Below are positions 2,149-33,841 of a stretch of 64,000 bases of DNA, piece by piece. Position numbers and translations under genes: made by a program. This DNA comes from a phage, in the NCBI GenBank assembly GCA_025812035.1, contig GCA_025812035.1_4719.1. The stretch is one strand, 5' to 3'. Every line of letters starts with the position of its first letter. The stretch's first letter is position 1. Below the pieces are notes generated by a model, which saw only the letters and a program-made list of their open reading frames with translations, had not been told where the DNA came from and did no database searches.

Positions 2149-2157
2149 GTTAGTTCC

Positions 2158-6438: not shown

Positions 6439-7545
6439 TTAACGAATCTGTGGGACGTTTCCGGTACGGAGCGCCTGGAGGATCGTCAGAAGATCGGAAC
6501 CCGAGGTTGACGAACTGTTTGATTTTTCCAGTTGTTTGAAGCTTACGGTGGTCCCTTGATCCAGACTGTGGAAATAGAAGGTCACCATCTCCTCAGCTTC
6601 GTCGATGATGATCAGTTGCATTGCAAGGGCTTCAGCCATGACTTTCTGGCGTGTATTGTAATCAGATAAACGACGTCCGATCTTACGCTCGATGGCTTCC
6701 TGGTTAGCCTTAGAGATGATATAGGTGGAGGCGATTGCTCCAGAAGAAGGGATCTTTGTGCTCGCTGCCGCTTTTGCAGCATTGATGCGCGCAGCATTCA
6801 CCGCTTTACGGATACCCTCTTTATCCATGCGTGAGATTCGTTTATGTTCACGAACCAAATCGCTAAGCAGGATCATATCACTCCAGAAAGATAGCTCACC
6901 GGCCATCATGCGATGCCAGCGTGCTCGCCAGGTGTTCTGTGGGCCACCGATTGCTAAAATCGATGCAAGCACTTCCGCTGGTGAACTTGCGATACGCATG
7001 CTGATGTTCAACGGCATTTTCATTGTTGCCTGACCGTCGGTCAGCGTCACCGTTAAGAACTTGCCGGTGACCGCGTTTGCATCTTTGTTCAGCAGTTCGA
7101 TCGCAGCGTCGCTGGCTCCAACATCGATGCTATTTTTTTGTTTCCCCTGCAGGTTGAATCCTTTGTCGTCAAGGAAAACAAGGCTTTTGCTATCCGCACT
7201 TTCCAGTGCTAATTTAACAGCCTTATCCATCAGGTTAGCGTTACGATTTGGGTTAACACGACCCAGCGTTTTATCTACACTGATGTTACCCACCTGCATG
7301 ATGGTGTTCAACGCCAGTAAATAGAACCCGGTATACATGTTTTCAGCGGTGCGCATGCAGTTGCCTAACGCATTGCGTGCGTCGCTATAATACAACTCAC
7401 GTTCAAAGATCAGCGGTGCGATAACGCGTGAAGGTTGTGAGAGTTCAACCAGCGAACCTGGTTGGATAAGTTTATTGACTTCGTAGACTTTAGCGATACC
7501 GGACGCAACAACGTTAACAGCGTCGGCAATTTCTGATGCTACCAT
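6439..7545 (-). CDS. Hypothetical protein, 368 aa (possible virion protein)
   Basis: Long ORF, ATG preceded by AAGGA; first gene of the minus-strand run; no recognisable motif. Confidence 0.6.
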   Translation of the reverse strand: MVASEIADAVNVVASGIAKVYEVNKLIQPGSLVELSQPSRVIAPLIFERELYYSDARNALGNCMRTAENMYTGFYLLALNTIMQVGNISVDKTLGRVNPNRNANLMDKAVKLALESADSKSLVFLDDKGFNLQGKQKNSIDVGASDAAIELLNKDANAVTGKFLTVTLTDGQATMKMPLNISMRIASSPAEVLASILAIGGPQNTWRARWHRMMAGELSFWSDMILLSDLVREHKRISRMDKEGIRKAVNAARINAAKAAASTKIPSSGAIASTYIISKANQEAIERKIGRRLSDYNTRQKVMAEALAMQLIIIDEAEEMVTFYFHSLDQGTTVSFKQLEKSNSSSTSGSDLLTILQALRTGNVPQIR

Positions 7546-7579
7546 ATTGAAATCCTTATTTACAAATAAAGGAAAGAAA

Positions 7580-8785
7580 ATGTCTAATTACTACGACCAA
7601 GCTATTCAAACCATTCAGGAGAATAATGCGTCGTTAACACCCGAAGCTGTGGAGGCAGCGGGTAACGCGGCGTTATTCACCGATTCGGATTGGGCAATAG
7701 CGCGGAAGAATATTCGTACCAGTGTCGGTCAAGGGACATACGAGGACAGTATCGCCAGACGGTATCGGAATGTGTCACCTATTCCGGGTAACAGCCCGAT
7801 TCCGATTAACCGCGATCATGCCGGTATTACCTTCTTCACACGACCTAATTTACATCTTACCGACGCGAACTTAAAACGAGATCGACGTTTGTGGTCGTTA
7901 CGCACGGATAACCCTAACAGCATTCAGGCTGTTGTCCGTGACTACTTGGACCCTGTGGGTGCCAGAAAGCGAAACCATCGAGGACGTGCCATCGTCGATG
8001 AGCGCAATCCATTCATAAGTATACTGACGGATAACCTGACGGATATCAGTGGTTTCAACGACATGGAAATGCAGGTCTATCAGGGTAAACCAGGATTACG
8101 CCAAGAAACCGTTGTGATGGCCGACGGTTCGGTGGATATGTTCCAGCCATATAACCTGAACGCGACGTTCAAGAACATCATGGGTAACCCCATCATGTTC
8201 CTTCATTATATTTGGTTAATTTACATCGCAGGTGTGCATAACGGTGAACTGACACCAAGCCCTCAGGCCATCGTTGATAATGAAATGGATTACTGGACAA
8301 GATGCTATCGCATCATCCTGGATCCGACCGGGATGTATGTTCGTTATATCTTCGCACCGACCGCGATGTTTCCTGTTGGGCTACCGATTGGTAATATGGC
8401 TAACTACAGCGTTGACAAACCCTTCACGCAAGATAACGAACGTATCACTATTCCATATCAAGCGGTTGGCAACAACGCGTTCGATGAGATTCTGAAGGAT
8501 GAATTCAATCGACTTGTCCTGATGTTCTATTACGGTGAGAACGATACCCGTACGTTCCTTGAAGATGAGGAGCTGGTACCTATCTCACCCTACGAGCGTC
8601 GAATCATGTCTTATCGTGTTGATATGTATCCGTTCATTCATCCGTTAACCTCAGAGCTTCTCTGGTTCGTACCCGCTGATGATTACAACGAATTCTATCT
8701 GGACCTTGAACCGTCAGCGTTACCACCGGATACGTTCAGTCGCGATCTTGTCCGTACCACCATTCCGCAAAATTACGAGGGATAA
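7580..8785 (+). CDS. Hypothetical protein, ~401 aa
   Basis: ORF track 7547..8785 begins at TTG; ATG at 7580 (MSNYYDQ) follows AAAGGAAAG. Divergent from the 6439..7545 gene with only ~35 nt between starts. Confidence 0.6.
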   Translation: MSNYYDQAIQTIQENNASLTPEAVEAAGNAALFTDSDWAIARKNIRTSVGQGTYEDSIARRYRNVSPIPGNSPIPINRDHAGITFFTRPNLHLTDANLKRDRRLWSLRTDNPNSIQAVVRDYLDPVGARKRNHRGRAIVDERNPFISILTDNLTDISGFNDMEMQVYQGKPGLRQETVVMADGSVDMFQPYNLNATFKNIMGNPIMFLHYIWLIYIAGVHNGELTPSPQAIVDNEMDYWTRCYRIILDPTGMYVRYIFAPTAMFPVGLPIGNMANYSVDKPFTQDNERITIPYQAVGNNAFDEILKDEFNRLVLMFYYGENDTRTFLEDEELVPISPYERRIMSYRVDMYPFIHPLTSELLWFVPADDYNEFYLDLEPSALPPDTFSRDLVRTTIPQNYEG

Positions 8786-8788
8786 TAA

Positions 8789-11782
8789 ATGAGCGTAACC
8801 AACAAAGATCTTGCTGAACAGCTCAATCGCTACATGCTTTCACCTATTGAAATGCAGGCTGTTGCAAGCGATATGATCCGTTTGGCTTCTGACGGCGAGT
8901 TAACCTTGGTTGATCCCAGCTGTCCGTTTGTCTATCTGCTGGAGGTTGCAACGGCAACGGCGGCGAACCAGAATGCACGGGATGAATCACGTGTTCGCGA
9001 ACTGTATCCGAAACTTGCAACGAACTGGAGCCAGCTCTATCGTTGGATGTATGACGAGTCGTACGTCGGTCGTTTCGCGATGCCGGGTAAAACAGAAATC
9101 ATTTATTCGTTAGGGTACCAGGAAATCCTTGATCGCGCTGTAGAAATTCCAAACACCGCTGCCTCCGACGATTTAAGTCGTTCCTACAGCCGTAAGTTAG
9201 TGATACCGCGTACAACGGCGTTTACGGTAGCCGGAATGGATTTCGGATTGCATTACCCTATCGAAATCCAAGTGCAAGCGCACGATCAGATACGTGCTGT
9301 TTATAACACCGACAACATCAGCCCGTTACAAACCTTGGAGAGTAACCAGGTCGAATACGGGGTTGTTCGCGTAAAAGCGGGTAAGGTGTTGGTTATGCGT
9401 ATCCCGCTGTTCCAGTTTAAAACGCTGGTAAAAGATGTGCCGTTTAACAGCATTCACGGGATGAACAGCAGCATTACCTTCGAAGATCAGTTTTACCATT
9501 GCCGTGCGTATATGTCGTCGGATAACGATACCTGGACGGAGATAGCGACAACACACAGCCAGCAGATCTATGATCCGTTAACACCAACCATCGCGTTACA
9601 AGTAGAAGGGAATAAACTTAACTGGCGTGTTCCTGAAATTTATTTGTCTCAAGGTACGATGGATAAAAGCACCATTCGACTTGAGGTGTTGACGACGAAA
9701 GGGAAAATCAGCGTCGACCCATCCGATTACGATGTGACCGATTGGAAAGATAACTACATCGATTTGTCGCCAAAAGCTGAACAGAAATACAGTGCGCCGT
9801 TAAGTGCGTTCAACATTAAAGGGATTTATAGTGAAGGAGCGTTGTCGGGTGGACGATCCGCGTTAACGTTCGAGGAACAACGTGAGCGTGTTATGGCGGG
9901 CGTGAACAAAACCAAGATACCTATCACGGGTACGCAGGTAGAGCTGGTGCTTCAAGATGCGGGTTACGGGATGGTGACCACCATCGACAACGTAACCAAT
10001 CGTTCGTTCCTGGCAACCCGAGATTTACCGCAACTGAGCGATAGCGTGCCTCAAGCCGGTTCGTTGATGGGGTCTTTCTATACGTCAGCTGCAGCATTGG
10101 TGAAAAGTAAGTTTGTCGCTGATAACGGCGATCGCATTACGATTAAACCGGATTGTTTGTATCGCGATAGTAACGGAAGCATTACGTTGTTACCGGACGA
10201 TGAAATCGATCGAATTAACGCGAGTGATTCGGACACTAAGCTGAATGCGGTAAACAATGCCATGCTTTGCTATAGTCCGTTTCATTACGTATTAGACACA
10301 TCTGGTGATTTTGACATCCATGCTTATTACTTGGATAATCCTAAAATCGGCACGCAGGCTTTCCTCGACGCGAACGAGACAATCCCGTTAACCGCCATGG
10401 TAACCGGATACCGTCTGGATCGTATTGCTGAAGGATATCGCCTGAGCCTCATTGTAGAGGGTAACGACGCATGGAAAGCGCTCGACGATAAAAACGTGCA
10501 CGTACAGCTGGGGTTCAATCCGCGGGGTGAGGGTGACTACGCTACGATGTTAGCGTCACCTACAACCGATGAGCAGGGTCGTCGTTTGTTCACCTTCGAC
10601 ATCACCACGAACTATGATTTTACGCGTATCCTGTCTGACGATTCCACGGCGTATGAACCGTATATCGCGTTGACTTCGTTCTCGATGTATGAATCAACGC
10701 CACGGGATTATTGGGCATCGCTGCAGCAGTATCTGGAAATCTTCCACGTGGTGACGGATTATGCGCCAGAAGACGTCGATGGTATTTTACACAGTGCTTC
10801 CGATAATTACCTGGTTAAGAAACTCACGCTTCAAAACGGGTATTGTTTCTACCGTGAACGTCTTACCGCAACCTTTGGTTATGATCTGGATGGTCTCTGG
10901 ATGCGTTCTCGTACGGTGGCCTCGGAGATTACGTATAAGCGTTATACCGAGAACATTCCGTGGTTATACGAAGAAGATATTCCAGCAACCGATGAGACCG
11001 GTTCTGTTATCATTGAACAAGGTGATGATGGTACATTATCGGTTAAATATCTACACCGTAAGGGAGATCCGAAATTAAACAGTGATGGAAGCCAAGCCTA
11101 TCGCTACCTGAAAGGCGACATCATGAAAGATAATTACGGTAATCCGATCCCTGTCGATGAGCGTGAGGTTCTGCGTAACCTGGACATGTTCTTTATTGAT
11201 GCGTCGTATCTGTTAGCGAACGATACAGACGTGATTGCGTATCGTAATGCGATCCCTACGCAACTTATCGAGTGGATCCAGAATGATATCAGCACGTTCA
11301 GGAATTTCTGTTATGAAGAAACAGAGATTTCGCTGTATCCTAAACAATCGCTGGGGTATGTGGATGTTATTGTGGAAAACGGATTGGAAACAACGCTTCC
11401 TGCTGCCCTATCGTTCAACGTGACGCTTTACTTACCGGCTAAGCAATACGCTGACTTGGATTTACGTCAAGTCCTTCAAGCGATGGTGTCGAGAGTCATT
11501 AATGAATGCTTAACATCCCGTACAGTGGCTAAAGCAGAAATGATCGCGATGATTCGTGAGGAAGGAGGTGACGATATCCTGAACGTTGAAATCGATGATT
11601 TTGGACCAGGTAAGAACCTCAGTGTTTATACGGCGAAGAACGATGGCGTTCGTTGTGCTGTGAAGAAAGAGCTTTATGTGAAAGCGGATGGTATCTTGTC
11701 CGTACGCGAAGCGATTGATGTGAGTTTTGTGAAACACGCACAAAGCAACAGCACCGCGTTAGCGCAAGGTCTTCGGATCTAA
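8789..11782 (+). CDS. Hypothetical large protein, 997 aa (possible virion protein)
   Basis: Long uninterrupted ORF starting 4 nt after the upstream stop; no recognisable motif. Confidence 0.65.
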   Translation: MSVTNKDLAEQLNRYMLSPIEMQAVASDMIRLASDGELTLVDPSCPFVYLLEVATATAANQNARDESRVRELYPKLATNWSQLYRWMYDESYVGRFAMPGKTEIIYSLGYQEILDRAVEIPNTAASDDLSRSYSRKLVIPRTTAFTVAGMDFGLHYPIEIQVQAHDQIRAVYNTDNISPLQTLESNQVEYGVVRVKAGKVLVMRIPLFQFKTLVKDVPFNSIHGMNSSITFEDQFYHCRAYMSSDNDTWTEIATTHSQQIYDPLTPTIALQVEGNKLNWRVPEIYLSQGTMDKSTIRLEVLTTKGKISVDPSDYDVTDWKDNYIDLSPKAEQKYSAPLSAFNIKGIYSEGALSGGRSALTFEEQRERVMAGVNKTKIPITGTQVELVLQDAGYGMVTTIDNVTNRSFLATRDLPQLSDSVPQAGSLMGSFYTSAAALVKSKFVADNGDRITIKPDCLYRDSNGSITLLPDDEIDRINASDSDTKLNAVNNAMLCYSPFHYVLDTSGDFDIHAYYLDNPKIGTQAFLDANETIPLTAMVTGYRLDRIAEGYRLSLIVEGNDAWKALDDKNVHVQLGFNPRGEGDYATMLASPTTDEQGRRLFTFDITTNYDFTRILSDDSTAYEPYIALTSFSMYESTPRDYWASLQQYLEIFHVVTDYAPEDVDGILHSASDNYLVKKLTLQNGYCFYRERLTATFGYDLDGLWMRSRTVASEITYKRYTENIPWLYEEDIPATDETGSVIIEQGDDGTLSVKYLHRKGDPKLNSDGSQAYRYLKGDIMKDNYGNPIPVDEREVLRNLDMFFIDASYLLANDTDVIAYRNAIPTQLIEWIQNDISTFRNFCYEETEISLYPKQSLGYVDVIVENGLETTLPAALSFNVTLYLPAKQYADLDLRQVLQAMVSRVINECLTSRTVAKAEMIAMIREEGGDDILNVEIDDFGPGKNLSVYTAKNDGVRCAVKKELYVKADGILSVREAIDVSFVKHAQSNSTALAQGLRI

Positions 11783-14800: not shown

Positions 14801-15450
14801 TCGCCGGATGGTTGTATAGCGAGTGCCTGTTCAAGGATTTTGCGGTCAACAGCATAAAGCGCTGATAGGGCCTGTGTTACCGCAACCAGATCAACAACCG
14901 GTGACCAGAGCTGTGCGAGTTTATCCTTGTATTTCTGTACAGCAATAACGAGGTCTTCTTTTACGTCAGGATGATTGATTAAACCACCCAACGCTTCATG
15001 GACTGCAGAAAAACGTTCAGAATGCGCTTGAGTTAATGCGACAAAATCGTCAACGTACGATGCATTTTCTTCAAGGCGTGCAAGTTCCTGCTCCAGGAGA
15101 TCTTTTACTTGCGTGGCGGATGCGTTTCTCAACTGTTCCCCGATAATCGCGATGGCTTTATCGACAACACGACAAGCTTCATTGAACCCGGTCGTTGATG
15201 GTAACTCGGTCCATAATGCCAGCGGCTTACCTTCCATTGCGTCAGGAAGGGAGTACGACAGCATTGTTAGTTGCTGACGCGATACCTGTTTATCACGATG
15301 TAGCGTTTCTTTCAACGCCAGAAGCTCATCAAGACCCACACTGCTGGGGATCGTGGGATGTGATACAGCGTTGATGTTTTCTGCTAATGACTCAAGAACC
15401 AATAAACCATTTTCAGCGGTAGAGAAACCTGCTTTAAGGTATTTGTTCAT
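11845..15450 (-). CDS. Hypothetical giant protein, 1201 aa (possible virion/ejection protein)
   Basis: Long ORF with GGAG SD; helical Ala/Leu/Glu/Lys-rich; contains IELVQEGF resembling the paralog-module motif. Confidence 0.65.
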   Translation of the reverse strand: MNKYLKAGFSTAENGLLVLESLAENINAVSHPTIPSSVGLDELLALKETLHRDKQVSRQQLTMLSYSLPDAMEGKPLALWTELPSTTGFNEACRVVDKAIAIIGEQLRNASATQVKDLLEQELARLEENASYVDDFVALTQAHSERFSAVHEALGGLINHPDVKEDLVIAVQKYKDKLAQLWSPVVDLVAVTQALSALYAVDRKILEQALAIQPSGDDGADEEYNAVTAVPSTDINVLMPYFDQAGNLIPTESVATPKEWDGKTLLNVLGTAVFASRIMRDVVNDYPETAALVKQLIERVDSAQADERLDNIGYLAVIARLQNARIVYQRMLLQCVRTVLTCAEVVAELVMSVSETATAVRSEQLWDKTQEEIEAADGYTRIELVQEGFFGPILKLFDKKGPNPLLDNKASNGWKYLENIQQQIAQTYANKSWVERNIHDKPVVSKRVARALSFDDGKVRMPMIVLKEAISAMRSVQKLVEAPAQARHTKLKQLEEKALRRVKAGENQYQVAKDTLAEAKKIKPLSTIPESSYPKWLGYKYSTFFNMLMLEEPVTDELPKLNVDDVVETGKFLTNDAAKALKEFTTADVFCGTGCDTELWNYDAFGDDDELYDQFYLHSKFNETSATDVYYNYLEALVNVCSATVEWLARQTSLKALTMEGYGIYTAESAWETLRRTMEYTVNILKRLVDWLVKSWRNGNAKAAIQQAEANNSQLTRAKDALLTEGTKKRLASLHTVGIQTIAKYAEAGTIWSGTFKGVTDNLGNVAALISSEVKELSNGRELDQDKLAKIREGLALAFEKGNFNKVLLEHDGITVDNLASEIHDYREELKNQFKESANESIDVDKLIRYNDGCRKFLQGPITDARNKVSGHELDNLLTMLNSMIRQQASSPENKGLGALKNEIVNARDLAKAAVDILGIAQWLEVRAKRYINALSTVVDKANSEAVAVNGSLKQEAFDLNDVVLSSTGYDVCSVAATSLAANRFRNTRDELRRHYNQALEAAFQVYNRATYNRAVIGQHLLGVMPQFTGVFSNYPWTLGLDLQVSDPAALNAFCEKLSQSIELYSAGTTDSIKQALALLDSAELCCAVDPNYECKYDSSAALAIHMTEYRRLAKEALEPHSDFTTEEQRRAWFTTFTDSSPSWEPEATLVAVTEDVDPSLVWAFASLFCAALNAYIALKYGTDLKVYGWFSEQQNSTNVR

Positions 15451-15531: not shown

Positions 15532-18336
15532 TTACGCTAATTTACCGAAACCGGCTTTCTGTAGTTTCTCGTTGATCAGTTTTGCTTCAGCGAAAACATA
15601 ATCACGATATGCGGTAACTAACCCATCCACCCGTGAACGCAAGGCTTCTTCGAAGCTATACCACGCAGCGATTTCACGAATCTGAGCGTTGATATAATCA
15701 ACGGTTGAGCGAAGCTCGGTTGCATTTTCTTGCGGGATGGCTTTCACCTGGCGAGCAACGTCATTTAAACGACGGAACTGTGTTTCGATTTCTTTAAACT
15801 TACTGTCAGCAAGTTTGCTGAATTCGTCACCGGAACGAGTAAATAACAGATAGCTGTTGCCATCAAGTGCGGTCGCTAACTGCTGAAGTACATTGGTGTC
15901 CGGATACACAGGAGTACCGCTTTGCAGTACTTTCTCACCGAATTCCGCGAAGTCCTTCGGCGGTAAGTGTGCAGACGTTGTCAATTCGTTGAAACGGAAA
16001 GTCAGCGAACTATCATACAACATCCGGTACGCTTCCATACCCTGTTTCATGGTACCAGCCAGGTTAGCCAGACGCGGAGCAATTTCACCCTCTTTAGCGC
16101 GCTTCTGGTCTTCTAACGCCCCTTCCAGTTCTTTACACTGGTCGTTCAGATACACGATACGATCGGGACGCAGACGACGCATCTCACGAAGAATAGTATC
16201 CAGCTTACCTTCCTGGAAATAACCTAGCGTTAAAGACGTACACGCTTGTTGAAGACGATCGAACACTGGTAAGGTTACCATCTCTTTACGGATACCATCA
16301 ACAATCGCAGAAACAGCCGAAAGTTTCTGTTCTGTGGTTAATGGAACGTCAGAGACCGACTTGCTGGGCGCACCAACAACGTTACGCATTGCGTCGGTAT
16401 CCTCGGTTTTATCAACCTCTTTACGAACATTCTCGTCGGGAACATAAACGTTCGCATTACGTTTTGCCTGTTTGATGGCATCGCTGGCCGCTTTTTCGGT
16501 GGCCGCTACGCTATCGGCACGTTTCTTCAAGAGTTCAATAATCCAAAGCAACAGACGACGAATCGCAGTGTAGGCTGTCGTGATGATGACGCCGATAACA
16601 GCCATCTTCATGATACCGAACGATTCCATGGTCGGCTCTAACGCCTGGTCAGGCATATACCGTTCACGCAGCTCCAGATAGATCTGCTCATCCGGTTTGC
16701 TGATCTCACCACGATGCGAAGTCCGATAGATGGCTTCGTCAATCTCAACAAGATCTTTACGTGCTTGACGGTCTGTTTCGGTCAAATAAGCGCAGCCGGA
16801 TACGTCGTCTTCAAAACTTTCGAACTTAAAGAAATCGACAACCATCTTGGCAAGCGCCTCTTTCTTAGCAGGATCGAGCGTCTTCGCATCTTCTTTTTGC
16901 TTATCCATTTTTTCCTTGAATTTCTCTTTGTAGTCATTCAAGGGTTTTACCGCTCTTGCCCTCAACGCGTTATAGATAGTTTTCCAACTTTCTTCGCGTT
17001 CTAAGATAAGGAAGTAGTTTTTGAGTTCGAAAGCACGGTAACGTGCAACGAGCTGTTCTACCTGAGCATGAGCGAGTTGTACATCCATCAACCAGCGGGA
17101 CAATGCTGAAACCAAACGACTATAAGCAAGCAGCGTTTGATATGTCAGCTTCATGTGTTTCTCGTAGAGTTCAATATCTCCGCCCCGGATATCAGCTGTC
17201 GGGTTCATCTCCTTAGTTGCTTTGAAGACTTGTTCAGCTTCATTCAACACTTGCTCGAACTTGACTTCATTGAACGCGTTGAATGGTTCGGCCAGTTCAT
17301 CCATCTGTTCGTGAAGCTCGCGAACCCAAGCTTCTTTGTGATTACGAATGACCGCATCAGCGTGGAGCACGGTTTGATGTTTCTGTACCCATTCTTCGAC
17401 GATATCTGCCGCTGCAACAACACCCATGTTGTCGGAAATCAACGGAATAACATTGGAGAGCATACCAGCACACGCTGGTGTTTTCCAATGATCGTTTAAC
17501 GCGTTACGGAACGCAATAATGTCCGTCATAGACGTAGTGATATCGAGGAACGTGTTACCGTTACGACTCATGCTTGCGATATTTGCAGCAAACGTCTTTT
17601 GCTGATCTACAACGAATGGAATCAATAGCATCAACCATTCAGCAACGCATTTTGCTTTGTCTTTCAGGTTTTTGTCGGCTATTTCTTTGAGATTGATTGC
17701 GCTACCATAACCCGCAAGTTCGTTATATACGTCGTTCAAGGTCATCTGCTTATCCAGCATTTCTCTGAAACGCGGATAATCTTCCCCTAACGCATCGATG
17801 ACATCTTGGATAACATCGTCAGTTGTGGCGATAAATTTCTTCGCGTCGACTTTAGATTTCCAGACGTGTCGTACCGCTTTCTTGATTCCTTCAAAGATAA
17901 ACGCCCAGATACGCTTGATGAGTTCCCAGACTTTCTTCGCACCATCGACAAACAGTTTAGAGACTTTGGCAACGAATCCTTCCTGCACCAACTCAACGCC
18001 GTTACGTGATGGAATTTCGGTGAAGAAAGCATCCGGCAGTTGTTTCGGGAACGCATCACCAAGACGCATACGCAATTCGGGTACATCGGCACGAGAAATA
18101 CCACGCGTCGTTAGCTGCTCGTGAAGACGAACGTTTTCTTCACCAGAGGCTACGAATTCGTTAACGTCAAATGAAACCAGTTCTTGATCTTCGGTGGTAA
18201 CGACGCTTGAACCATCACTGGTTTGGATGTCTTCGTCAGGGAATGCCATGAGCATACCGTGACGCATTTCAACCACCCCGTAATCGGTTGCTAAACCGAA
18301 TTCGTTGTGATCGGGGGTAATAACTGGGATACTCAT
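15532..18336 (-). CDS. Hypothetical giant protein, 934 aa with paralog module and a hydrophobic segment
   Basis: AAGGAGAG SD; N-terminal region ISRADVPELRMRLGDAF ... GVELVQEGFVAKVSKLF...KKVWELIKRIWAFIF matches the module of the ~430-aa paralogs; hydrophobic stretch MAVIGVIITTAYTAIRRLLLWII. Confidence 0.65.
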   Translation of the reverse strand: MSIPVITPDHNEFGLATDYGVVEMRHGMLMAFPDEDIQTSDGSSVVTTEDQELVSFDVNEFVASGEENVRLHEQLTTRGISRADVPELRMRLGDAFPKQLPDAFFTEIPSRNGVELVQEGFVAKVSKLFVDGAKKVWELIKRIWAFIFEGIKKAVRHVWKSKVDAKKFIATTDDVIQDVIDALGEDYPRFREMLDKQMTLNDVYNELAGYGSAINLKEIADKNLKDKAKCVAEWLMLLIPFVVDQQKTFAANIASMSRNGNTFLDITTSMTDIIAFRNALNDHWKTPACAGMLSNVIPLISDNMGVVAAADIVEEWVQKHQTVLHADAVIRNHKEAWVRELHEQMDELAEPFNAFNEVKFEQVLNEAEQVFKATKEMNPTADIRGGDIELYEKHMKLTYQTLLAYSRLVSALSRWLMDVQLAHAQVEQLVARYRAFELKNYFLILEREESWKTIYNALRARAVKPLNDYKEKFKEKMDKQKEDAKTLDPAKKEALAKMVVDFFKFESFEDDVSGCAYLTETDRQARKDLVEIDEAIYRTSHRGEISKPDEQIYLELRERYMPDQALEPTMESFGIMKMAVIGVIITTAYTAIRRLLLWIIELLKKRADSVAATEKAASDAIKQAKRNANVYVPDENVRKEVDKTEDTDAMRNVVGAPSKSVSDVPLTTEQKLSAVSAIVDGIRKEMVTLPVFDRLQQACTSLTLGYFQEGKLDTILREMRRLRPDRIVYLNDQCKELEGALEDQKRAKEGEIAPRLANLAGTMKQGMEAYRMLYDSSLTFRFNELTTSAHLPPKDFAEFGEKVLQSGTPVYPDTNVLQQLATALDGNSYLLFTRSGDEFSKLADSKFKEIETQFRRLNDVARQVKAIPQENATELRSTVDYINAQIREIAAWYSFEEALRSRVDGLVTAYRDYVFAEAKLINEKLQKAGFGKLA

Positions 18337-20338: not shown

Positions 20339-22090
20339 ATGAGCGAACAAGAACGAAAACCTAAGAAGAAACTGCTCGGTATTCAATGTCGACACATCAG
20401 TTATAACGAAGCGAACGATGGCAGTAAGAACGATCTCATGATTGCAAAAGAGATCATGTTCTTTGATGATAATACGCAGGCAACGAACCTTCGATTCTTC
20501 GAGAATTACAAACGTCCATTTTGGGTGACGGTAGAGAGTAAACGTAAGAACAAATATAAAAAGGAAAGCGAGAAGCTCTCGCATGTACGTCGCTATGATG
20601 TCCGTCAAAGTGAACTGGTCGATAAAATCAGTTCGGTGCTTTATAAAAGACGTGCTGATGATAACACCCGCTTACAACAGCTCGCACGGAGTCCATACCT
20701 CTATGGAACGGACGTTAGCGCTAGCTGTTATTTAAAAACCCAATACAATACAAAATGGCCGGAATACGCCGATAAATTACCTGCCACCATCGCATGTTTC
20801 GATATCGAAACCGACGTTGTTCATGGGCACGGTAAGATCGTTTGTATGTCTATTACAATGGGCTACAATGCGATACTTTGCTATACCAAGGACTTCGTTG
20901 GTCATATTCCGAATGCGATCGAGAAAACCCACGAGAAGATTCGATATTACCTGGCCGAACGTCTGAACACCAAAGAGGATCCTCACGCGTTCGAAAAATA
21001 TCATTACGATGTTCGAATCGTAGAAAGCCCAGCACAAGCGGTCATCCAATGCATGCAGAAGGTTCACGAATGGCAGCCGGATTATCTCCTTGGCTGGAAT
21101 ATCGCGTTCGATATTCCACGTATGCTCCAGGCGCTGAACGAGGAAGGGTATCGTCCCGAGGATGTTTTCTCCGATCCTCGCGTACCCCCTAAGTATCGCA
21201 TTGCTCGCTGGGTACCACCGAAGACCGACAAGGTATCTGCTTCAGGTCGTAAAACCAACCTTACCCTTGAGCAGACCTGGCCGATGTTTTATACGATGGC
21301 TACATACCAGGTTATGGATGCGATGTGTGGTTATAAGTTCGTTCGTTTAGGAAGACCGGATGAAGGACGTTATTCACTCGATGCGGTGTTAGAGCGTAAT
21401 AAATGTCATACGAAACTAAAAGCGATTCCTGGTACAGAAGGGTTCACGGAGCTCGCCTGGCACGAAGAGATGCAAACGAACCATCAAATCGACTACGGCG
21501 TATATAACCTTTGGGATAACCAAGGTATTGAGGCATTGGACCAGAAAACAAAAGACTATTCGATGACCATCCCTATTCGTTTAGCGGCGTCGGATTTGAA
21601 AGATTTCAGTTCCAACCCTAAACGTATCTGTGATAAACTTTTCTTCGTTTATCTTAACCGTGGGGAAGTCATGGGATGCACCGCCGACGACATGACCCAG
21701 GAAGAAGATAAATGGGTTATCTCACGAGCAGGACATATCGTCACATTACCATGCGATCTCATGGCAGACAACGGCATACATCTCTTCTGGGATATGCCGA
21801 ACTTGAGAAGTTATATCCGTCTATTCGTTGCAGACCTTGACATAAGCAGTTCATACCCGAATGGGCAGATCCTGCTCAATCTATCCAGGGCGTGTGTTTT
21901 TCGTGAGCTCTCACGTATTGAGGGCGTCTCTGACTATCAATTCAGGAAGCTAGGTATCAACTTTATTACCGGAGGTAAAACGAACGCGGTAGACTTCTGT
22001 AGAATCGTTTATAAAGCACCATCGATGTTCGAACTCTTAGAACATTTCGATGCGACGCGTCCGAAAGAGGAAGCGCGAACCATCGAATGA
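20339..22090 (+). CDS. Family-B DNA polymerase-like protein: 3'-5' exonuclease domain plus motif-A-like segment, 583 aa (possible N-terminal part of a split polymerase)
   Basis: Exo I CFDIETD, Exo II GWNIAFDIPRM, Exo III YGVYNLWDNQ with family-B-like spacing; DLDISSSYPN resembles motif A (DxxSLYPS); no motif B/C before the stop; terminator hairpin follows. Confidence 0.5.
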   Translation: MSEQERKPKKKLLGIQCRHISYNEANDGSKNDLMIAKEIMFFDDNTQATNLRFFENYKRPFWVTVESKRKNKYKKESEKLSHVRRYDVRQSELVDKISSVLYKRRADDNTRLQQLARSPYLYGTDVSASCYLKTQYNTKWPEYADKLPATIACFDIETDVVHGHGKIVCMSITMGYNAILCYTKDFVGHIPNAIEKTHEKIRYYLAERLNTKEDPHAFEKYHYDVRIVESPAQAVIQCMQKVHEWQPDYLLGWNIAFDIPRMLQALNEEGYRPEDVFSDPRVPPKYRIARWVPPKTDKVSASGRKTNLTLEQTWPMFYTMATYQVMDAMCGYKFVRLGRPDEGRYSLDAVLERNKCHTKLKAIPGTEGFTELAWHEEMQTNHQIDYGVYNLWDNQGIEALDQKTKDYSMTIPIRLAASDLKDFSSNPKRICDKLFFVYLNRGEVMGCTADDMTQEEDKWVISRAGHIVTLPCDLMADNGIHLFWDMPNLRSYIRLFVADLDISSSYPNGQILLNLSRACVFRELSRIEGVSDYQFRKLGINFITGGKTNAVDFCRIVYKAPSMFELLEHFDATRPKEEARTIE

Positions 22091-22138
22091 TTAAAGTATG
22101 TTGATCCTCGTTTAACAAAAAAGAAAACGCATGCGAAG

Positions 22139-22180
22139 CCCCTCCCCCTGGCGGAAGCCGGAGGGAGGGGTGGAGGTTTT
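22139..22180. terminator. Hairpin plus T-run between convergent polymerase-like gene and paralog array
   Basis: C-rich/G-rich stem (CCCCTCCCCCTGGC / GCCGGAGGGAGGGG) followed by TGGAGGTTTT on the plus strand. Confidence 0.6.
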
Positions 22181-22188
22181 ATGTGTTT

Positions 22189-22638
22189 TTAATTATTATT
22201 GGTGGGGTTATCGTCCGGTTTATATTCAATGCCGTAGGCGACGTAACGGTCTGTTGTATGGACGACAAGCGAGATAGGGAAATCATAATGCATAGTTTTG
22301 TCTCGAACGAGCTGAGTAAAGAGATCCATATAACGTATTAAGTCTTCACTGGTGTAATCAGAAGGGAAGAAGACATCGATGGTTATTGAATCTTCATAGA
22401 GGCGTACGACCAACTTATCCAGAAGGTCGGCATATTGGTTAGCCGGGGTGACGTCCATCTGACAGATGCCACGATCTCCTTCGTCTCGCGATACCCACAT
22501 CGTGGTATCCTGTAATGAGGTTTCAAGGATCTCGAAAATACATTTTGCTGTAAGTCTTAGTTTATTTGTTACGTCATGGTTAGGTGAATAATGGTCACGG
22601 ATGTTTTTCACTGCGTCTTTGATAGAGAAAGTCATCAT
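22189..22638 (-). CDS. Small paralog family protein 1 of 8, 149 aa (function unknown)
   Basis: Shares N-terminal helix motif (AKCIFEILETSLQDTTMW) and acidic C-terminal tail (YGIEYKPDDNPT) with seven neighbours. Confidence 0.6.
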   Translation of the reverse strand: MMTFSIKDAVKNIRDHYSPNHDVTNKLRLTAKCIFEILETSLQDTTMWVSRDEGDRGICQMDVTPANQYADLLDKLVVRLYEDSITIDVFFPSDYTSEDLIRYMDLFTQLVRDKTMHYDFPISLVVHTTDRYVAYGIEYKPDDNPTNNN

Positions 22639-22648
22639 TGATGCTCCT

Positions 22649-23158
22649 TCAAATGAAATTAATACGTGCGGCTGTCGAAACGAGTTCGCTTGTAAAGCAA
22701 TGCTTACCGTCGGGATTTACCGTGTGGGTAAGTTTACAAACCTTAGCGGCAGGGTTAGCGCCGATGACAAGGACGGTCGTCATATCGAACAGTTCCACAC
22801 GTTGAAGAAATGCCGTATCGGCTACCTTCTGTAAACCGGTTGCTTCAAAATCGATGTGGTCGTTAAGAGGCACCAATTGGATTTCAATACGTTCTTTGAA
22901 AAGTTTAAACGTTACTGAAAACCGATGAGGTTCGGCATTAAGCCATAAAGGTCCGCGTTGGAAGTGCTGATATGCTTCATTCGCGGTGTTCTCGAAAACC
23001 CAGCAGTCGTGGACAAGAGAAGCCTCTTGTAACGATGATTCCAGGTAGTCAAATACCTTGTTTATCGTTTTCTCAAGCATAGGTGCTAGTGAACCAGGGT
23101 ATCCAGCAAATGCTGCTTCGGCAATCGATTTTATTGATACGATGTTGTTCTGACTCAT
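22649..23158 (-). CDS. Small paralog family protein 2 of 8, ~169 aa
   Basis: ORF track 22649..23185; start moved to MSQNN after AAGGAA that overlaps the upstream stop; N-terminal motif INKVFDYLESSLQEASLVHDCW. Confidence 0.55.
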   Translation of the reverse strand: MSQNNIVSIKSIAEAAFAGYPGSLAPMLEKTINKVFDYLESSLQEASLVHDCWVFENTANEAYQHFQRGPLWLNAEPHRFSVTFKLFKERIEIQLVPLNDHIDFEATGLQKVADTAFLQRVELFDMTTVLVIGANPAAKVCKLTHTVNPDGKHCFTSELVSTAARINFI

Positions 23159-23162
23159 TTCT

Positions 23163-23615
23163 TTATTCCTTGTTGGCTTCTTCAATGTACTTGGTGTCGT
23201 AAGACAAATGCTGAATTAATTTTCTAGGCTCGATGAAAATACGACACGTGATAAACACATCAGGGTTGTATTGTTCCACGCAACGTCCGAAGGCTTGTTT
23301 TGCGGCGTGACGCATCAACACTAATTCCCGATCGTTCATCTCATCATCAAATTCGATATGTATCGTGATTTTATCGGGAAATAAATAGATAGAGTAATCG
23401 CTACCAATACCGTCGTCGTCAAAGCGATAATCGTTGTGGTAATGGTGAAGTTTACCTTCGTGTACCGTCTGGTACCACCCGACGATACTATCAAGACCCA
23501 TACCCAGGCGTCCGAATGCCTGATTAATAATATCCTCGACGACGGATGCGGGGGTGGGACCATTGAACAATCTATCCAGACGTTTTTTCATCGATTTGTC
23601 TGTTTTCACATTCAT
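23163..23615 (-). CDS. Small paralog family protein 3 of 8, ~150 aa
   Basis: ORF track 23163..23666 would translate the upstream hairpin; start moved to MNVKTDKS. Motif VEDIINQAFGRLGMGLDSIVGW. Confidence 0.55.
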   Translation of the reverse strand: MNVKTDKSMKKRLDRLFNGPTPASVVEDIINQAFGRLGMGLDSIVGWYQTVHEGKLHHYHNDYRFDDDGIGSDYSIYLFPDKITIHIEFDDEMNDRELVLMRHAAKQAFGRCVEQYNPDVFITCRIFIEPRKLIQHLSYDTKYIEEANKE

Positions 23616-23645
23616 CGATTCTGTTCCTGTTATAGTCAGTATAAA

Positions 23646-23681
23646 CCCTCCTTCCCTAGCCATCAAGGCCGGGGAAGGGGG
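23646..23681 (-). terminator. C-rich/G-rich hairpin inside the paralog array
   Basis: CCCTCCTTCCC ... GGGGAAGGGGG between genes ending 23694 and starting ~23615. Confidence 0.45.
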
Positions 23682-23693
23682 TATGTGCGTTAT

Positions 23694-24101
23694 TTATGCT
23701 TCGTTGTCAACTAAAGGTGCTGTATGTTTCTTACCGTCGATGTGCCAAATGAGACACGCTGGATAGAGGTTAACATCTAGAGAGCAGGGGAGGCCATATT
23801 TCTCTTCCAGTTCGTAAAGACGTTCAGCGAGCTGCTTCCGTCCATCATCATCGTTTTGCAATGCATGATGGCCGAATCGTTGCTGGTCGTTCTTTACATA
23901 CGCCTCGAAAAGTATATGTTGTTGAAAAACGATGATTCTTACACCTTCAAGTATGTCGGTGTCGAGCATGCGAGAAAAACTCATACATGCCTCTGATGCC
24001 GAAGACGAGTTTTCCTCTTTAACAATATCAATCATCGCGGTGATACGTGGCTGATCGATGTTGTCGTTAACCGCTTTAACGATGGAATCTACAATACTCA
24101 T
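23694..24101 (-). CDS. Small paralog family protein 4 of 8, 135 aa
   Basis: ORF; N-terminal VKAVNDNIDQPRITAMIDIV; similar fold pattern to neighbours by eye (weakest member). Confidence 0.5.
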   Translation of the reverse strand: MSIVDSIVKAVNDNIDQPRITAMIDIVKEENSSSASEACMSFSRMLDTDILEGVRIIVFQQHILFEAYVKNDQQRFGHHALQNDDDGRKQLAERLYELEEKYGLPCSLDVNLYPACLIWHIDGKKHTAPLVDNEA

Positions 24102-24138
24102 TTTTTATCCTTAATGTTACCGGTTTAGAAATATTATT

Positions 24139-24903
24139 TTATTTACTGTTATCCTTATCGACAGTTGTTACCCATGATGGGAAAGCCGGATGGAAACAGA
24201 GCGTGAACGTAACCTTCGCATCGTATTTAAGCGCGTGGTTCACTAACCGGGTATCGAACGTTTTCCTTAGCCCGTCATCATCATTATCGATGATAGTCAT
24301 ATCCCTTAATATCCCAAGCACGTTAACGCCATCGGGTGTCTGGGTTACGACGACTCGTCGTAACGGCCCATGTGTATAGTCACGTACGTATCCTTTCTTC
24401 GGGTCCGATACTCTGTTTAACGCATCGCGATTTTCGATGAGTTCATCAGCAATACGATAGATGTGTTCCCTTGCTTTATCGTGATCGTATTCTGCTAATA
24501 GTTCCTTTGTATCGAACGATATCGCGTTACTATCATTCGATTCAGAAGGGAAATAAAGAACTAAACGAACAGGGTATTCGTATTGATCCGTTCTCGTTTC
24601 GAAAACACCGGCTAAACATGGTTTATATGCCTTTGCGTCGACGTTGTCTAAACACGGATGCAATAATGCGTGAATAACGACACCATCGTCAGTTAAACCG
24701 AATTCCAGAAATTGTGTTTCATCGGTATCTGTTACCGTTTTCTGAAGATACGCTTTACCGTTAACGATATCGGTATCCCATATATCGTCGTTTAATGATT
24801 CTTCAAACTTATCGAATATAAGGTTTACGGTATCGATGAGTCCATCGATACGCCACTGCTGATTGCTCTCAATTAATTGCTGAACCTTATCTTTGATAGA
24901 CAT
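24139..24903 (-). CDS. Small paralog family protein 5 of 8, 254 aa (extended C-terminus)
   Basis: AAGGAG SD overlapping the upstream stop; N-terminal NLIFDKFEESLNDDIWDTD; central YEYPVRLVLYFPSE matches the family pattern. Confidence 0.6.
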   Translation of the reverse strand: MSIKDKVQQLIESNQQWRIDGLIDTVNLIFDKFEESLNDDIWDTDIVNGKAYLQKTVTDTDETQFLEFGLTDDGVVIHALLHPCLDNVDAKAYKPCLAGVFETRTDQYEYPVRLVLYFPSESNDSNAISFDTKELLAEYDHDKAREHIYRIADELIENRDALNRVSDPKKGYVRDYTHGPLRRVVVTQTPDGVNVLGILRDMTIIDNDDDGLRKTFDTRLVNHALKYDAKVTFTLCFHPAFPSWVTTVDKDNSK

Positions 24904-24905
24904 GA

Positions 24906-25364
24906 TTACTCCTTAGTTCCTTCTTCGTCAGGTGTATACGCCAATGTGAAGAATTCATAACCATCAACAAACTTGAATGTTACTGTAATAGGGAAATCGC
25001 ACGGCATGACGGATTTCATAAATGCATCATTAGCAACCTCAGATAACCGACGTATGACATCTCCCCTGCTGGCGTTGAATGGTAGTTTTATGTCGATAAG
25101 GATGCGGTGCTTGTAAACATAGAAAACAACGGTACTGTCAAGATAAATACCAGAGAGCTGCGTTGTTGGGATGCGTTCCACAATGGAAAAATACGTCCCA
25201 TCAGTATCGCTATTTCCCACCGACCATTTATCGGATTTGCGTAGATTTTCTTTGAGGGATTCGACACTTCGAGTGATGACCTCAACGATAGGCGTGACGT
25301 AAGCGTCTTTATGCGTGTCGAAAAGTTCGTTAACAGTAGACTTGAATGAATATTCTGTTGTCAT
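24906..25364 (-). CDS. Small paralog family protein 6 of 8, 152 aa
   Basis: Start overlaps the upstream stop; VEVITRSVESLKENLRKSDKW ... CDFPITVTFKFVDGYEFFTLAYTPDEEG. Confidence 0.6.
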   Translation of the reverse strand: MTTEYSFKSTVNELFDTHKDAYVTPIVEVITRSVESLKENLRKSDKWSVGNSDTDGTYFSIVERIPTTQLSGIYLDSTVVFYVYKHRILIDIKLPFNASRGDVIRRLSEVANDAFMKSVMPCDFPITVTFKFVDGYEFFTLAYTPDEEGTKE

Positions 25365-25879
25365 TATTCTACCTCTTTCTTCATCTTCATCGGAACAGAG
25401 AGTGTTGTTACCTCTGTTCCATTATCCGGCTCATATTCCAATGTAACGAGATCGTAACCATCCGATAATTCATAATCGATCGCTAGGGGGAACGAGATAC
25501 CGTGCGACTTTATGCATTTACCAAATGTCTCATTGGCCGTATACATTAGAAGTTGCTTTGCGGCAAGCCCGTTTACGCTGAAAGGTAATCGTGCTGTCGC
25601 AGCGATACGATTATTGTAAACTCTGATATCGGTGATATCTACAATCGTAGCATTGCTATGTTGTAATGTTGGAACGGATAGGCTGTAGAAGTAAGGTTTA
25701 GATCCGGAATCGGGTTCATTAAATAATTCCCAACATCCGTCCTCCTGCAATCTTACCTCGAGTATTTCAAAGCTTTTAATTATCGATTCTACCAGCTGCT
25801 CACCGTAAGAATCCCATGTCGTCATTTTAGCACCTTCGATACCTTTTAACCGACACGTGCCCCACTTAACAAGGGACAC
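25364..25879 (-). CDS. Small paralog family protein 7 of 8, 171 aa
   Basis: ESIIKSFEILEVRLQEDGCW ... ISFPLAIDYELSDGYDLVTLEYEPDNG. Confidence 0.6.
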   Translation of the reverse strand: MSLVKWGTCRLKGIEGAKMTTWDSYGEQLVESIIKSFEILEVRLQEDGCWELFNEPDSGSKPYFYSLSVPTLQHSNATIVDITDIRVYNNRIAATARLPFSVNGLAAKQLLMYTANETFGKCIKSHGISFPLAIDYELSDGYDLVTLEYEPDNGTEVTTLSVPMKMKKEVE

Positions 25880-25894
25880 GAAGTCGTTGATTAA

Positions 25895-26395
25895 TTACTC
25901 TTCTGTGTTTTCATTGTCAGGATCGTAGTGGAATTCGAACAGCCCTGAACCGTCATGCCCATTGATTGTTAGTATAACGGGCATATCGAATCCTCGGACG
26001 CGCGAATGAAAACACTGTGCTAATTTTAGTTTGGCGTATGCCGCTATTTCATTGATGGCAATACACGACTCACCTGTTATACTCAGTATAACGTCGATAC
26101 TAACAATGTTGTTGTGCAACGCAAAACGCCAACGATCGATATGATTATTATCTTTAGCGGTTGTCTCGTTTACGAGATAGACTTTATCGTCAGCCGACAA
26201 AGCGGGGCTCCAGCAACGTTCGTTTATTAAATTCGCCTGGAGTTTTAGTATCGTCTGATCAATAATATCCCAACACGTAACCAGCGTGGCGTCAGACACT
26301 GAATTGAGAAGGGCGAGCACTTTATCCTTTATTTTAAGTGCTTCCGCAGGACGCCCGCAAATACCATGCATTTCAACTTTCTTATTCATATTCAC
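25895..26395 (-). CDS. Small paralog family protein 8 of 8, 166 aa
   Basis: WDIIDQTILKLQANLINERCW ... FDMPVILTINGHDGSGLFEFHYDPDNEN. Confidence 0.6.
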   Translation of the reverse strand: MNMNKKVEMHGICGRPAEALKIKDKVLALLNSVSDATLVTCWDIIDQTILKLQANLINERCWSPALSADDKVYLVNETTAKDNNHIDRWRFALHNNIVSIDVILSITGESCIAINEIAAYAKLKLAQCFHSRVRGFDMPVILTINGHDGSGLFEFHYDPDNENTEE

Positions 26396-26432
26396 CTCTT
26401 TTTTAATCTAAATGTTAGTTGGGATAGGGCGA

Positions 26433-27065
26433 TCACATGCTTTCTAACATATTGACGATCATGGAACCCATACCGAAACTCGGTCTCTCGCCGATGTACT
26501 CAGCAAGCTGACGATGAACGTCTTTTGGATTCCCTTCTTCACCGTCGGCATCGATGTAAACCGAAAAAGAAAATGAATCGGAATCCACGCTGATAACCAG
26601 ACGACGTTCATTGCGTTCCTTGAGTGTATCGACAATAGCTGCTTTCAGTACTGTGATCGCGTTCATCGCGTGCAAGATATCTCCATCAGGTCTCGCCAGA
26701 TCGATCTTTTCTTTCAGGTCGATATTGATGTTGGTTACAATTGGATTGAGATCGACTTTGACATAATCGTTAGGGGACACGCGAATAATTGCACGATCGA
26801 TATCTGAACCGTAAAAGTCGATACGTGGCTTTAACACTTCTTTGTTTGGATCCATGTTTTCATCCATACCCGCCTGTAGAAAGCGTTCTACGTTATCCAG
26901 TTCACGATAAACTGACGCTTCGATTTCTTTCAGATAGTTGGCTGCGGTTTCATGTTCTTTGCGTAGCTCGTCTTTAAGGAGCTGTACGGTGACTTCACTG
27001 GAACGAATGCTGTTCGCGAATTGTGTAATTGACATATCGAATTCCTTAAGTTCTCTTGAGTTCAA
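26433..27065 (-). CDS. Hypothetical protein, 210 aa
   Basis: ORF followed on the minus strand by a hairpin plus T-run terminator (~27084-27112). Confidence 0.55.
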   Translation of the reverse strand: MNSRELKEFDMSITQFANSIRSSEVTVQLLKDELRKEHETAANYLKEIEASVYRELDNVERFLQAGMDENMDPNKEVLKPRIDFYGSDIDRAIIRVSPNDYVKVDLNPIVTNINIDLKEKIDLARPDGDILHAMNAITVLKAAIVDTLKERNERRLVISVDSDSFSFSVYIDADGEEGNPKDVHRQLAEYIGERPSFGMGSMIVNMLESM

Positions 27066-27083
27066 TTAATGATGAAATGCTGT

Positions 27084-27112
27084 AAAAAAAAAATGGTGGG
27101 GCGAACCCCACC
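27084..27112 (-). terminator. Rho-independent terminator (hairpin plus U-tract)
   Basis: Minus-strand GGTGGGG-TTCG-CCCCACC followed by a 10-T run; 3' of the gene ending 27137. Confidence 0.75.
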
Positions 27113-27136
27113 GAAACGTCAGACACACGCAGAAAA

Positions 27137-27562
27137 TCAATTCAGTGATGCATACAACGCATAACGACTGTAGATCTCAACCGCTGGCCCGTTATGCGTT
27201 AACAGACCATCTCGGTTGTAATACTGGAAAAAGGAATAGCGTTTGTCGAAGTGATAAACGAAAGCAATGTCTTTACCGTTAAGACCCGTGATGCGTGGTC
27301 TGTTTTTATCTAGCAATGCTTTGACTTTTAACAGTGTTGCCGCACGTGCTTTAACATTAGGGATTAATCCATCACAGTCGATATAAACCGTGTAACCTGT
27401 TTCAGATGTTGCGACGGTTGTATTGCGATTGACGCGGAAGATTTTTGTTTTGTATGTATTATCTTCAAGGATTGGGTTTTGTTTTTCGTATTTTCGTTTA
27501 TGCAGAAATCCTACAACGGTAATATAGTTAGCGGTAATATGTCCGGTTATAGCCTGTAACAT
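27137..27562 (-). CDS. Hypothetical protein, 141 aa, preceded by the conserved ~95-bp leader element
   Basis: ATG with AAGAGGA SD inside the repeated leader (27563-27660). Confidence 0.55.
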   Translation of the reverse strand: MLQAITGHITANYITVVGFLHKRKYEKQNPILEDNTYKTKIFRVNRNTTVATSETGYTVYIDCDGLIPNVKARAATLLKVKALLDKNRPRITGLNGKDIAFVYHFDKRYSFFQYYNRDGLLTHNGPAVEIYSRYALYASLN

Positions 27563-27660
27563 TTTGACATCCTCTTATATTGGATTGATTACAGTTATCT
27601 TAAATAGGCGATAAGATATCTTGCTCTTATCACCTTAGTAATATAGCCGTGAAATAAATT
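27563..27660 (-). promoter_or_regulatory. Conserved ~95-bp leader/promoter element, copy 1
   Basis: Minus-strand order: box TTTCACGGCTATATTA (contains -10-like TATATT), a 5'-UTR hairpin, then AATCAATCCAATATAAGAGGATGTCAA-ATG; the same blocks recur at 51772-51862. Confidence 0.55.
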
Positions 27661-27689
27661 GTGTTAACAAGAAATAAAACAGCATAGAA

Positions 27690-27729
27690 CCCTCCTCCCC
27701 CATCCTTCAAGAGGACGGTGGGAAGAGGG
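27690..27729 (-). terminator. C-rich/G-rich imperfect hairpin
   Basis: CCCTCCTCCCCC ... GGTGGGAAGAGGG, 3' of the gene ending 27737. Confidence 0.4.
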
Positions 27730-27736
27730 AGAGAGA

Positions 27737-33840: not shown

Positions 33841-33841
33841 A

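Follow-up and report, generated by a model that had tools for sequence, protein, structure and literature searches.

An intact jumbo phage gene that very probably encodes the N-terminal chain of a family B DNA polymerase that is naturally split in two

We analyzed a 64,000-nucleotide stretch of phage DNA (GenBank assembly GCA_025812035.1, contig GCA_025812035.1_4719.1; the whole stretch is hereafter called the window), focusing on an open reading frame (ORF) at positions 20339 to 22090 of the plus strand. An earlier note, made from the sequence alone, had described its product as a protein that resembles family B DNA polymerases and stops shortly after palm motif A, and had proposed that it was part of a split polymerase, a truncated polymerase, or a standalone exonuclease. 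At the nucleotide level, the window region shares 94.4% identity with Escherichia phage vB_EcoM_Goslar, a chimallivirus of the phiKZ-like, nucleus-forming jumbo type, in which the ORF has the same gene neighbors. Among the other products of the window are an RNA polymerase beta-type subunit, an NAD-dependent ligase, internal head proteins, and tail fibers of the kind found in such phages. The ORF very probably is an intact gene for the N-terminal subunit of the naturally split family B replicative DNA polymerase of phiKZ-like jumbo phages, in which a second chain carries motifs B and C. According to the ORF list and translation, it starts with ATG and comprises 583 codons followed by a stop codon at 22088-22090. 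The features of the locus are as follows (aa, amino acids; AF2, AlphaFold2; pLDDT, predicted local distance difference test).

20339..22090, plus strand: complete coding sequence, 583 aa plus stop, very probably the N-terminal (DNAPN-type) subunit of a split family B DNA polymerase; based on the ORF, phrog_3011, identity to Goslar, tblastn, and AF2/Foldseek.
20369..20773, plus strand: predicted N-terminal domain, aa ~11-145 (boundary approximate), beta-rich and family B-like; pLDDT >90, strands at 12-89, and ~450-510 columns aligned with RB69, Pol epsilon, and Pol II.
20798..20815, plus strand: Exo I, FDIETD, aa 154-159, with D155 and E157 invariant; from the translation and a 38-sequence alignment.
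21092..21124, plus strand: Exo II, GWNIAFDIPRM, aa 252-262, with N254 and D258 invariant; aligned with RB69 WNVESFDIPY.
21503..21517, plus strand: Exo III, YNLWD, aa 389-393, with Y389 and D393 invariant; aligned with RB69 YISYNIID.
21833..21862, plus strand: palm motif A, DLDISSSYPN, aa 499-508 (D499-L-D501-ISSS-Y506-P-N); from invariant columns and the RB69 profile alignment.
21835..21836, plus strand: empty intron insertion site between the D499 and L500 codons; from the junction in the comparison with Goslar.
21863..22087, plus strand: C-terminal tail, aa 509-583, following motif A, with a conserved GINLTGG.NAVE block; poorly modeled alone.
22123..22190, no strand assigned: hairpin with a GC core at 22138-22171 and A-rich 5' and U-rich 3' flanks; from direct folding.

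Conservation was assessed in an alignment of 38 homologues sharing ~35% identity. The catalytic residues of all three exonuclease motifs are invariant in this alignment, as are D499, D501, Y506, and P507 of motif A and, downstream of it, N514 and E523, and the tail residues G529, R536, N541, N549, and P561 are conserved. The best-conserved segment of the protein is aa 461-520. Each of the family B signatures Exo I (DxE), Exo II (Nx2-3(F/Y)D), Exo III (Yx3D), and motif A (DxxSLYPS) is present, and the motifs go well beyond what chance would produce. Motif B (KxxxNSxYG) and motif C (DTDS), which a family B polymerase would carry on the same chain, were found neither in the ORF nor elsewhere in the 64-kilobase (kb) window. 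The earlier note had thus read the ORF correctly on its exonuclease motifs, on a motif A block near the stop codon (which lies 75 aa past that block), and on the missing motifs B and C.

Searches with the single sequence were nearly blind to the relationship with characterized polymerases, so profiles were required to obtain the match to RB69. Pfam returned PF03104 at 16.3 bits, below the cut-off of 23, and the sole phmmer match among PDB sequences was an intein chain (E 0.44) in the Exo III region. When the family profile was compared with the sequences of solved structures, the best match was RB69 DNA polymerase, with an E-value of 1.9e-6. The match runs colinearly through three segments, one at Exo II, one at Exo III, and one that pairs profile positions 480-507 with RB69 404-431. 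In the last of these, D501 lies opposite RB69 D411 and Y506 lies opposite RB69 Y416. RB69 D411 is a catalytic metal ligand and Y416 is the steric gate.

The AF2 model of the protein had a mean pLDDT of 83, with values >90 for aa ~7-450 and of 40-70 for aa 460-583. Low values in the latter region are what a palm fragment that requires a partner would give when modeled alone. Foldseek comparison of this model with the PDB placed RB69 gp43 on top (E 1.5e-12), followed by T4, Pol epsilon, and E. coli Pol II. The best 50 of 98 matches at E <= 0.001 were all family B polymerases, and no DnaQ- or RNase D-type exonuclease was among the Foldseek matches listed. The N-terminal and exonuclease domains thus have a family B fold.

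These data bear on the proposal that the protein is a standalone proofreading exonuclease, derived from a polymerase and accompanying a self-sufficient divergent polymerase, with the motif A-like block persisting as a structural relic. This proposal agrees with the description of the N-half by Iyer et al. 2021 and with Pfam, which sees an exonuclease domain only, and that below threshold. A relic would be expected to drift, however, whereas D499, D501, Y506, P507, N514, and E523 are invariant and the segment that holds motif A (aa 461-520) is the most conserved of the protein. A standalone exonuclease of the DnaQ or RNase D type would also have neither a polymerase N-terminal domain nor a palm motif, and the ORF product has both. 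Together with properties of the partner protein and of intron insertion described below, these observations make a standalone exonuclease improbable.

The gene is an intact, full-length member of a conserved family of ~580-aa proteins. Its product matched the PHROG family phrog_3011 'DNA polymerase' with an E-value of 3.6e-178 over profile positions 5-570 of 576, and SPN3US gp44 aligned with the window by tblastn at 28.9% identity over 571 aa (E 5.6e-69), so that it shows the end-to-end similarity at ~580 aa that defines the phiKZ-like N subunit. By tblastn, homologues of the ORF were present in 291 phage records, nearly all from phiKZ-like jumbo phages, with ~96% coverage; the hosts in these records included Pseudomonas, Erwinia, Salmonella, Vibrio, and others. 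A collection of 5.8 billion proteins yielded 208 homologues, nearly all of 555-640 aa, and in an exhaustive profile search of 1.84 billion representatives, 607 scored at E <= 1e-30. Of 1595 representatives, the best 150 were 450-700 aa long, with the sole exception of P0234 (894 aa), whose extra tail is acidic, of low complexity, without a Pfam domain, and without motif B or C. No fused single-chain relative was found among the 208 homologues or among the best 150 of 1595 representatives.

Since the homologues share the same end point, we dismiss the suggestions of the earlier note that the polymerase is truncated or that an indel lies at 22090-22190. Truncation, decay to a pseudogene, or loss of motifs B and C through an indel from assembly or sequencing might have been suspected, given that a canonical family B polymerase would run ~400 aa further and that the Goslar ortholog is annotated in RefSeq as shorter still, at 499 aa. 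The phrog_3011 profile, however, is covered almost to its end, and hundreds of homologues have not only the same terminus but also the conserved C-terminal tail. A terminator hairpin and a convergent gene lie directly 3' of the ORF, no sequence coding for motif B or C follows downstream or elsewhere in the window, and the 499-aa Goslar annotation is accounted for by an unannotated intron (see below). Truncation in any of these forms therefore retains practically no probability.

The hairpin at 22123..22190 lies between the ORF and the convergent gene at 22189..22638 (minus strand). Its folding energy is -40.8 kcal/mol (z = -5.63), and 0 of 200 shuffled sequences were equally stable. Given its location between convergent genes, it is best read as a likely bidirectional intrinsic terminator, in agreement with the terminator that the earlier note placed after the ORF. 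A simple consensus terminator scanner did not list the hairpin at 22138-22171 because the T-run begins more than 2 nucleotides (nt) past the stem.

The catalytic half was not found in the window by PHROG scans of 20 large ORFs or by tblastn with SPN3US gp18, which gave nothing better than E ~1. Pfam analysis of ten further window ORFs did not reveal Rhc (RNase H-clamp), the third subunit reported for the Goslar polymerase. The search for an ORF with motifs B and C that the earlier note had recommended was thus negative for the window, but it succeeded in related phages, in which these motifs reside on a separate protein, gp244 in Goslar and gp18 in SPN3US. Goslar gp244 (174314..176467, 717 aa) adjoins the nuclear shell gene and lies ~93 kb from gp068, the ortholog of the ORF, on the opposite strand. 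It belongs to Pfam family PF20286 'divDNApol' (E 1.4e-203). This family was found in 302 phage records, with genus counts matching those of the N-half, and its members are always 687-796 aa long. A 99%-identical partner cluster (P0121) was found on ~235-kb contigs. In SPN3US, gp44 has the motif A sequence DADLTQAYPS, and gp18 has KTLNNGMSG and SDTDS. A full-length polymerase with its own exonuclease, which the earlier note had named, along with alignment to DnaQ- or RNase D-like enzymes, as evidence that would overturn its reading, was found neither in the window nor in the part of the Goslar record that was read (~213 kb). The co-occurrence of the PF20286 protein in the same phages, and a literature that names the pair, support the note's suggestion of a split polymerase with its catalytic half encoded elsewhere.

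The invariant residues of the partner family include R122 and K126 in the first finger helix; K152, N156, and G160 in motif B; S404-D-T-D-S408 in motif C; K484 and Y486 in the KxY motif; and K506 and G507. In the AF2 model of the partner (pLDDT 87), the finger helices, the motif C hairpin, and a thumb can be recognized, along with a helical insert of ~200 residues. The fingers are preceded by a conserved N-terminal extension of ~78 aa. Against RB69 438-505, a region made up of the SPNG hairpin and the first helix of the fingers, partner profile positions 79-145 give a weak but colinear alignment; the partner match therefore begins at RB69 ~438, right after the end of the ORF match at 431. Upstream of the fingers the partner has no conserved acidic position that could serve as the motif A ligand: the best candidate column is 81% acidic and is Gln in the Goslar-type protein. 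Both the adjoining match boundaries and the lack of a motif A equivalent speak against the partner being a self-sufficient polymerase accompanied by a standalone exonuclease.

We therefore favor a naturally split family B polymerase, a form conserved across the phiKZ-like jumbo phages (Chimalliviridae and relatives), of which the ORF encodes the N-terminal subunit. As proposed here, this subunit would supply the N-terminal domain, the 3'-5' proofreading exonuclease (Exo I to III), and the first palm segment, whose motif A would provide the catalytic Asp D501 and the steric-gate Tyr Y506. A second protein of the Goslar gp244 (PF20286) type, encoded tens of kb away, would supply the fingers, motif B, the motif C hairpin, the KxY strand, and the thumb. 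Once these chains associate, motif A of one and motif C of the other would together form the two-metal site. According to a preprint on Goslar (Rani et al., bioRxiv Oct 2026, PMC13648698), the complex in that phage also includes Rhc.

That the active site is probably assembled from both chains follows from the lack of a conserved acidic residue ahead of the partner fingers, and from comparison of the two families with RB69 the break in the palm would fall between the equivalents of RB69 ~431 and ~438, just past the motif A strand and helix. We located this break point by aligning both families to RB69 with HMMER, not by superposing structures. The C-terminal tail of the ORF product (aa 509-583) is probably a docking segment that packs against the partner subunit. 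A more specific version, in which the palm is broken internally, the active site exists only in the heterocomplex, and the ~60-aa tail of the N-half and the ~78-aa head of the partner form a dedicated docking module, is put forward tentatively and is less likely to be right than wrong.

Several observations weigh against a split polymerase with a shared active site. Iyer et al. 2021 described the C-half as a polymerase whose RNA recognition motif (RRM) palm is complete, and saw in the N-half merely an exonuclease encoded by a gene of its own; a trans-assembled active site differs in emphasis from their view of the N-half. The motif A stretch taken alone is not significant in the RB69 alignment (i-Evalue 620), and its assignment carries weight because of its colinearity with RB69 and its invariance. 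Foldseek matches of the partner to RB69 and T4 were weak (E 1.5e-3, template modeling score ~0.25). The partner gene lies outside the 64-kb window, and we infer its presence in the source genome from Goslar, which is 94% identical, and from P0121. Finally, in the partner (Goslar gp244/P0121) E194, within a NANNERFLAGN block, is invariant; this residue sits just past motif B, where the family-specific helical insert starts, and canonical family B polymerases show no evident equivalent of it. No solved structure of the polymerase discussed here was among the matches in the PDB copy searched.

Comparison of the ORF with Goslar gp068 revealed an intron polymorphism at the motif A codons. Homology to Goslar halts at window position 21831 and resumes at 21854. 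The Goslar insert is 1765 nt long (NC_048170.1 81187..82951; 7498..9262 of the retrieved segment L001) and carries gp069, which encodes a NUMOD1/HNH endonuclease. Its group I intron core matched RF00028 with 44.7 bits (E 1.5e-9), narrowly missing the gathering score of 50. Goslar exon 1 ends with ...FVAD (...GCGGAT) and is followed immediately by an in-intron TAA, and exon 2 starts with CTCGATATATCTTCAAGCTATCCAAAT, which encodes LDISSSYPN. The intron position is thus two codons ahead of the catalytic Asp of motif A. Goslar gp068 carries an unannotated group I intron, which is why its RefSeq product is only 499 aa, and the window allele is intron-free. In the 27 nt 3' of the insertion site, 13 positions differ between the window and Goslar, all of them synonymous and including whole serine-codon switches, against a regional divergence of ~5.6%. 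This concentration of synonymous differences suggests co-conversion or immunity of the endonuclease (homing) site.

Introns at or near this position are probably not confined to Goslar. About 17 of the 120 best homologues are 479-508 aa long, and the 10 of these short homologues that were read (P0042, P0059, P0066, P0072, P0079, P0087, P0093, P0096, P0100, and P0112) end with ...VAD, with ...VADLD, or a few residues further on. In the locus of one short homologue (L007, 6480-7125), a weak signal for a group I intron (27 bits, E 1.2e-4) lies directly after ADLD, and a second exon then encodes the conserved GINLTGG..N.VEIA tail. Motif A of the N subunit thus looks like a recurrent hot spot for intron insertion, with at least two insertion positions. 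Recurrent homing of mobile introns to the motif A codons, in many lineages, is expected of an indispensable catalytic site and is a further argument against a standalone exonuclease with a relic motif A.

The introns also raise the question of whether the split itself is mediated by an intein or intron, with the two halves joined by protein or RNA trans-splicing. The group I introns at the motif A codons of relatives and the phmmer match to an intein chain could be taken as hints of such a process. That intein match is not significant, however, and falls in the Exo III region, and an Rfam scan of the window gave no match at the gathering threshold. The ORF ends in a conserved tail of ~75 aa and not in a splice junction, the partner starts with its own conserved extension of ~78 aa, and in Goslar the two genes are ~93 kb apart on opposite strands. 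We consider joining of the halves by trans-splicing extremely unlikely, and the split polymerase made of two separate chains remains our preferred reading.

We also considered an intein, intron, or frameshift within the window ORF itself and rejected it, as the ORF is colinear with its homologues, has no Rfam match, and has as its only intein match the one with E 0.44. The intein and intron signatures that the earlier note proposed to look for are therefore absent from the window, and it is the Goslar allele that has the group I intron. Two more group I introns that carry HNH endonuclease genes are annotated in Goslar, both within genes for RNA polymerase subunits (NC_048170.1 169269..169645 and 211817..212245; segments L004 and L005). 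Together with the one in gp068, this brings the mobile introns in genes for essential enzymes of Goslar to at least three. Near-identical E. coli chimalliviruses with and without the gp068 intron provide a ready system for tests of intron homing or interference of the kind demonstrated for PhiPA3 and PhiKZ.

Other features of the window were noted in passing. Two tandem arrays of small paralogous genes, encoding proteins of 135-180 aa with 20-35% pairwise identity, lie on the minus strand at 22189-26395 and 56716-59120, the first beginning directly after the polymerase gene. The region 22189-28138 contains 11 ORFs of at least 120 aa, compared with the 7 annotated Goslar genes (gp070-gp076) seen so far, but only four of these window ORFs are demonstrably paralogs. 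A 208-aa protein encoded at 33725-34351 (plus strand) has a Macro domain (PF01661, E 2.6e-5) and matches phrog_335 'phosphatase'. A DarG2-like anti-defense antitoxin has been reported for chimalliviruses (PMC13309987), and this Macro-domain protein may be a candidate counterpart. A 1172-aa tail fiber protein encoded at 40503-44021 (minus strand) matched 56 PHROG tail fiber families in many repeated stretches; it is a mosaic, repeat-rich receptor-binding protein that resembles the fibers of unrelated coliphages. Very large ORFs (1201, 934, 446, and 429 aa) had no PHROG match, though they are conserved in Goslar (gp064, gp065); the coordinates listed for ORFs without a PHROG match are 11845-15450, 15532-18336, and 859-3498, all on the minus strand.

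The results are of use for annotation, since a gene that resembles a broken polymerase is, in our interpretation, one subunit of an essential replicase of nucleus-forming jumbo phages. Labels such as pseudogene, truncated gene, or simple exonuclease would not suit the ORF. The break-point map, together with a partner that lacks a motif A equivalent, supplies residues for mutagenesis, with D501 and Y506 to be compared with D258 and D393.

The split arrangement itself is already known, and our finding is a correct rediscovery of it. A split-subunit DNA polymerase was described for OBP and phiKZ by Cornelissen et al. 2012, and the SPN3US gp18/gp44 split polymerase by Thomas et al. 2016, 2017; Iyer et al. 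2021 chose gp18 to exemplify the 'divergent family B polymerase' found in group 1 jumbo phages. For Goslar, the preprint by Rani et al. reports a polymerase of three subunits, DNAPN (gp068), DNAPC (gp244), and Rhc, which form a complex with polymerase activity. The value that remains lies in the precise mapping of the break point and in the intron polymorphism, and a trans-assembled active site would be a modestly new mechanistic detail if true and not already contained in that preprint.

Among known systems, the closest is Goslar gp068 (DNAPN), a direct ortholog with 94% nt identity, 99% aa identity over exon 1, and the same upstream neighbors; it differs in being interrupted at the D499/L500 codons by the 1765-nt group I intron, whereas the ORF is uninterrupted. 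SPN3US gp44 and gp18 belong to the same two protein families as the ORF product and its partner, and their genes are likewise far apart in the genome, but their sequences are only distantly similar and the genome is ordered differently. The T4-like Aeromonas phages 25 and 44RR also make a family B replicase as two polypeptides, 43A and 43B, which co-purify and are active. The analogy with split gene 43 drawn in the earlier note therefore holds in principle, although not in gene arrangement: the 43A and 43B cistrons are adjacent, with an intercistronic untranslated sequence (UTS) or a seg endonuclease gene between them, whereas the genes considered here are tens of kb apart. In addition, the split here is family-wide and ancient, and both halves have extra terminal segments. 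DnaQ-like and RNase D-like exonucleases share the DEDDy catalytic residues with the ORF product, which additionally has an N-terminal domain of family B type and a palm segment with motif A, and whose listed structural matches are all family B. RB69/T4 gp43 is the best match in both profile and structure and is colinear with the ORF product through RB69 ~431. RB69 gp43 is a single chain of 903 aa, whereas the chain encoded by the ORF stops after motif A with an extra tail of ~60 aa, and a second protein, which has an N-terminal extension of ~78 aa and a helical insert of ~200 aa, carries the fingers, motif C, and the thumb.

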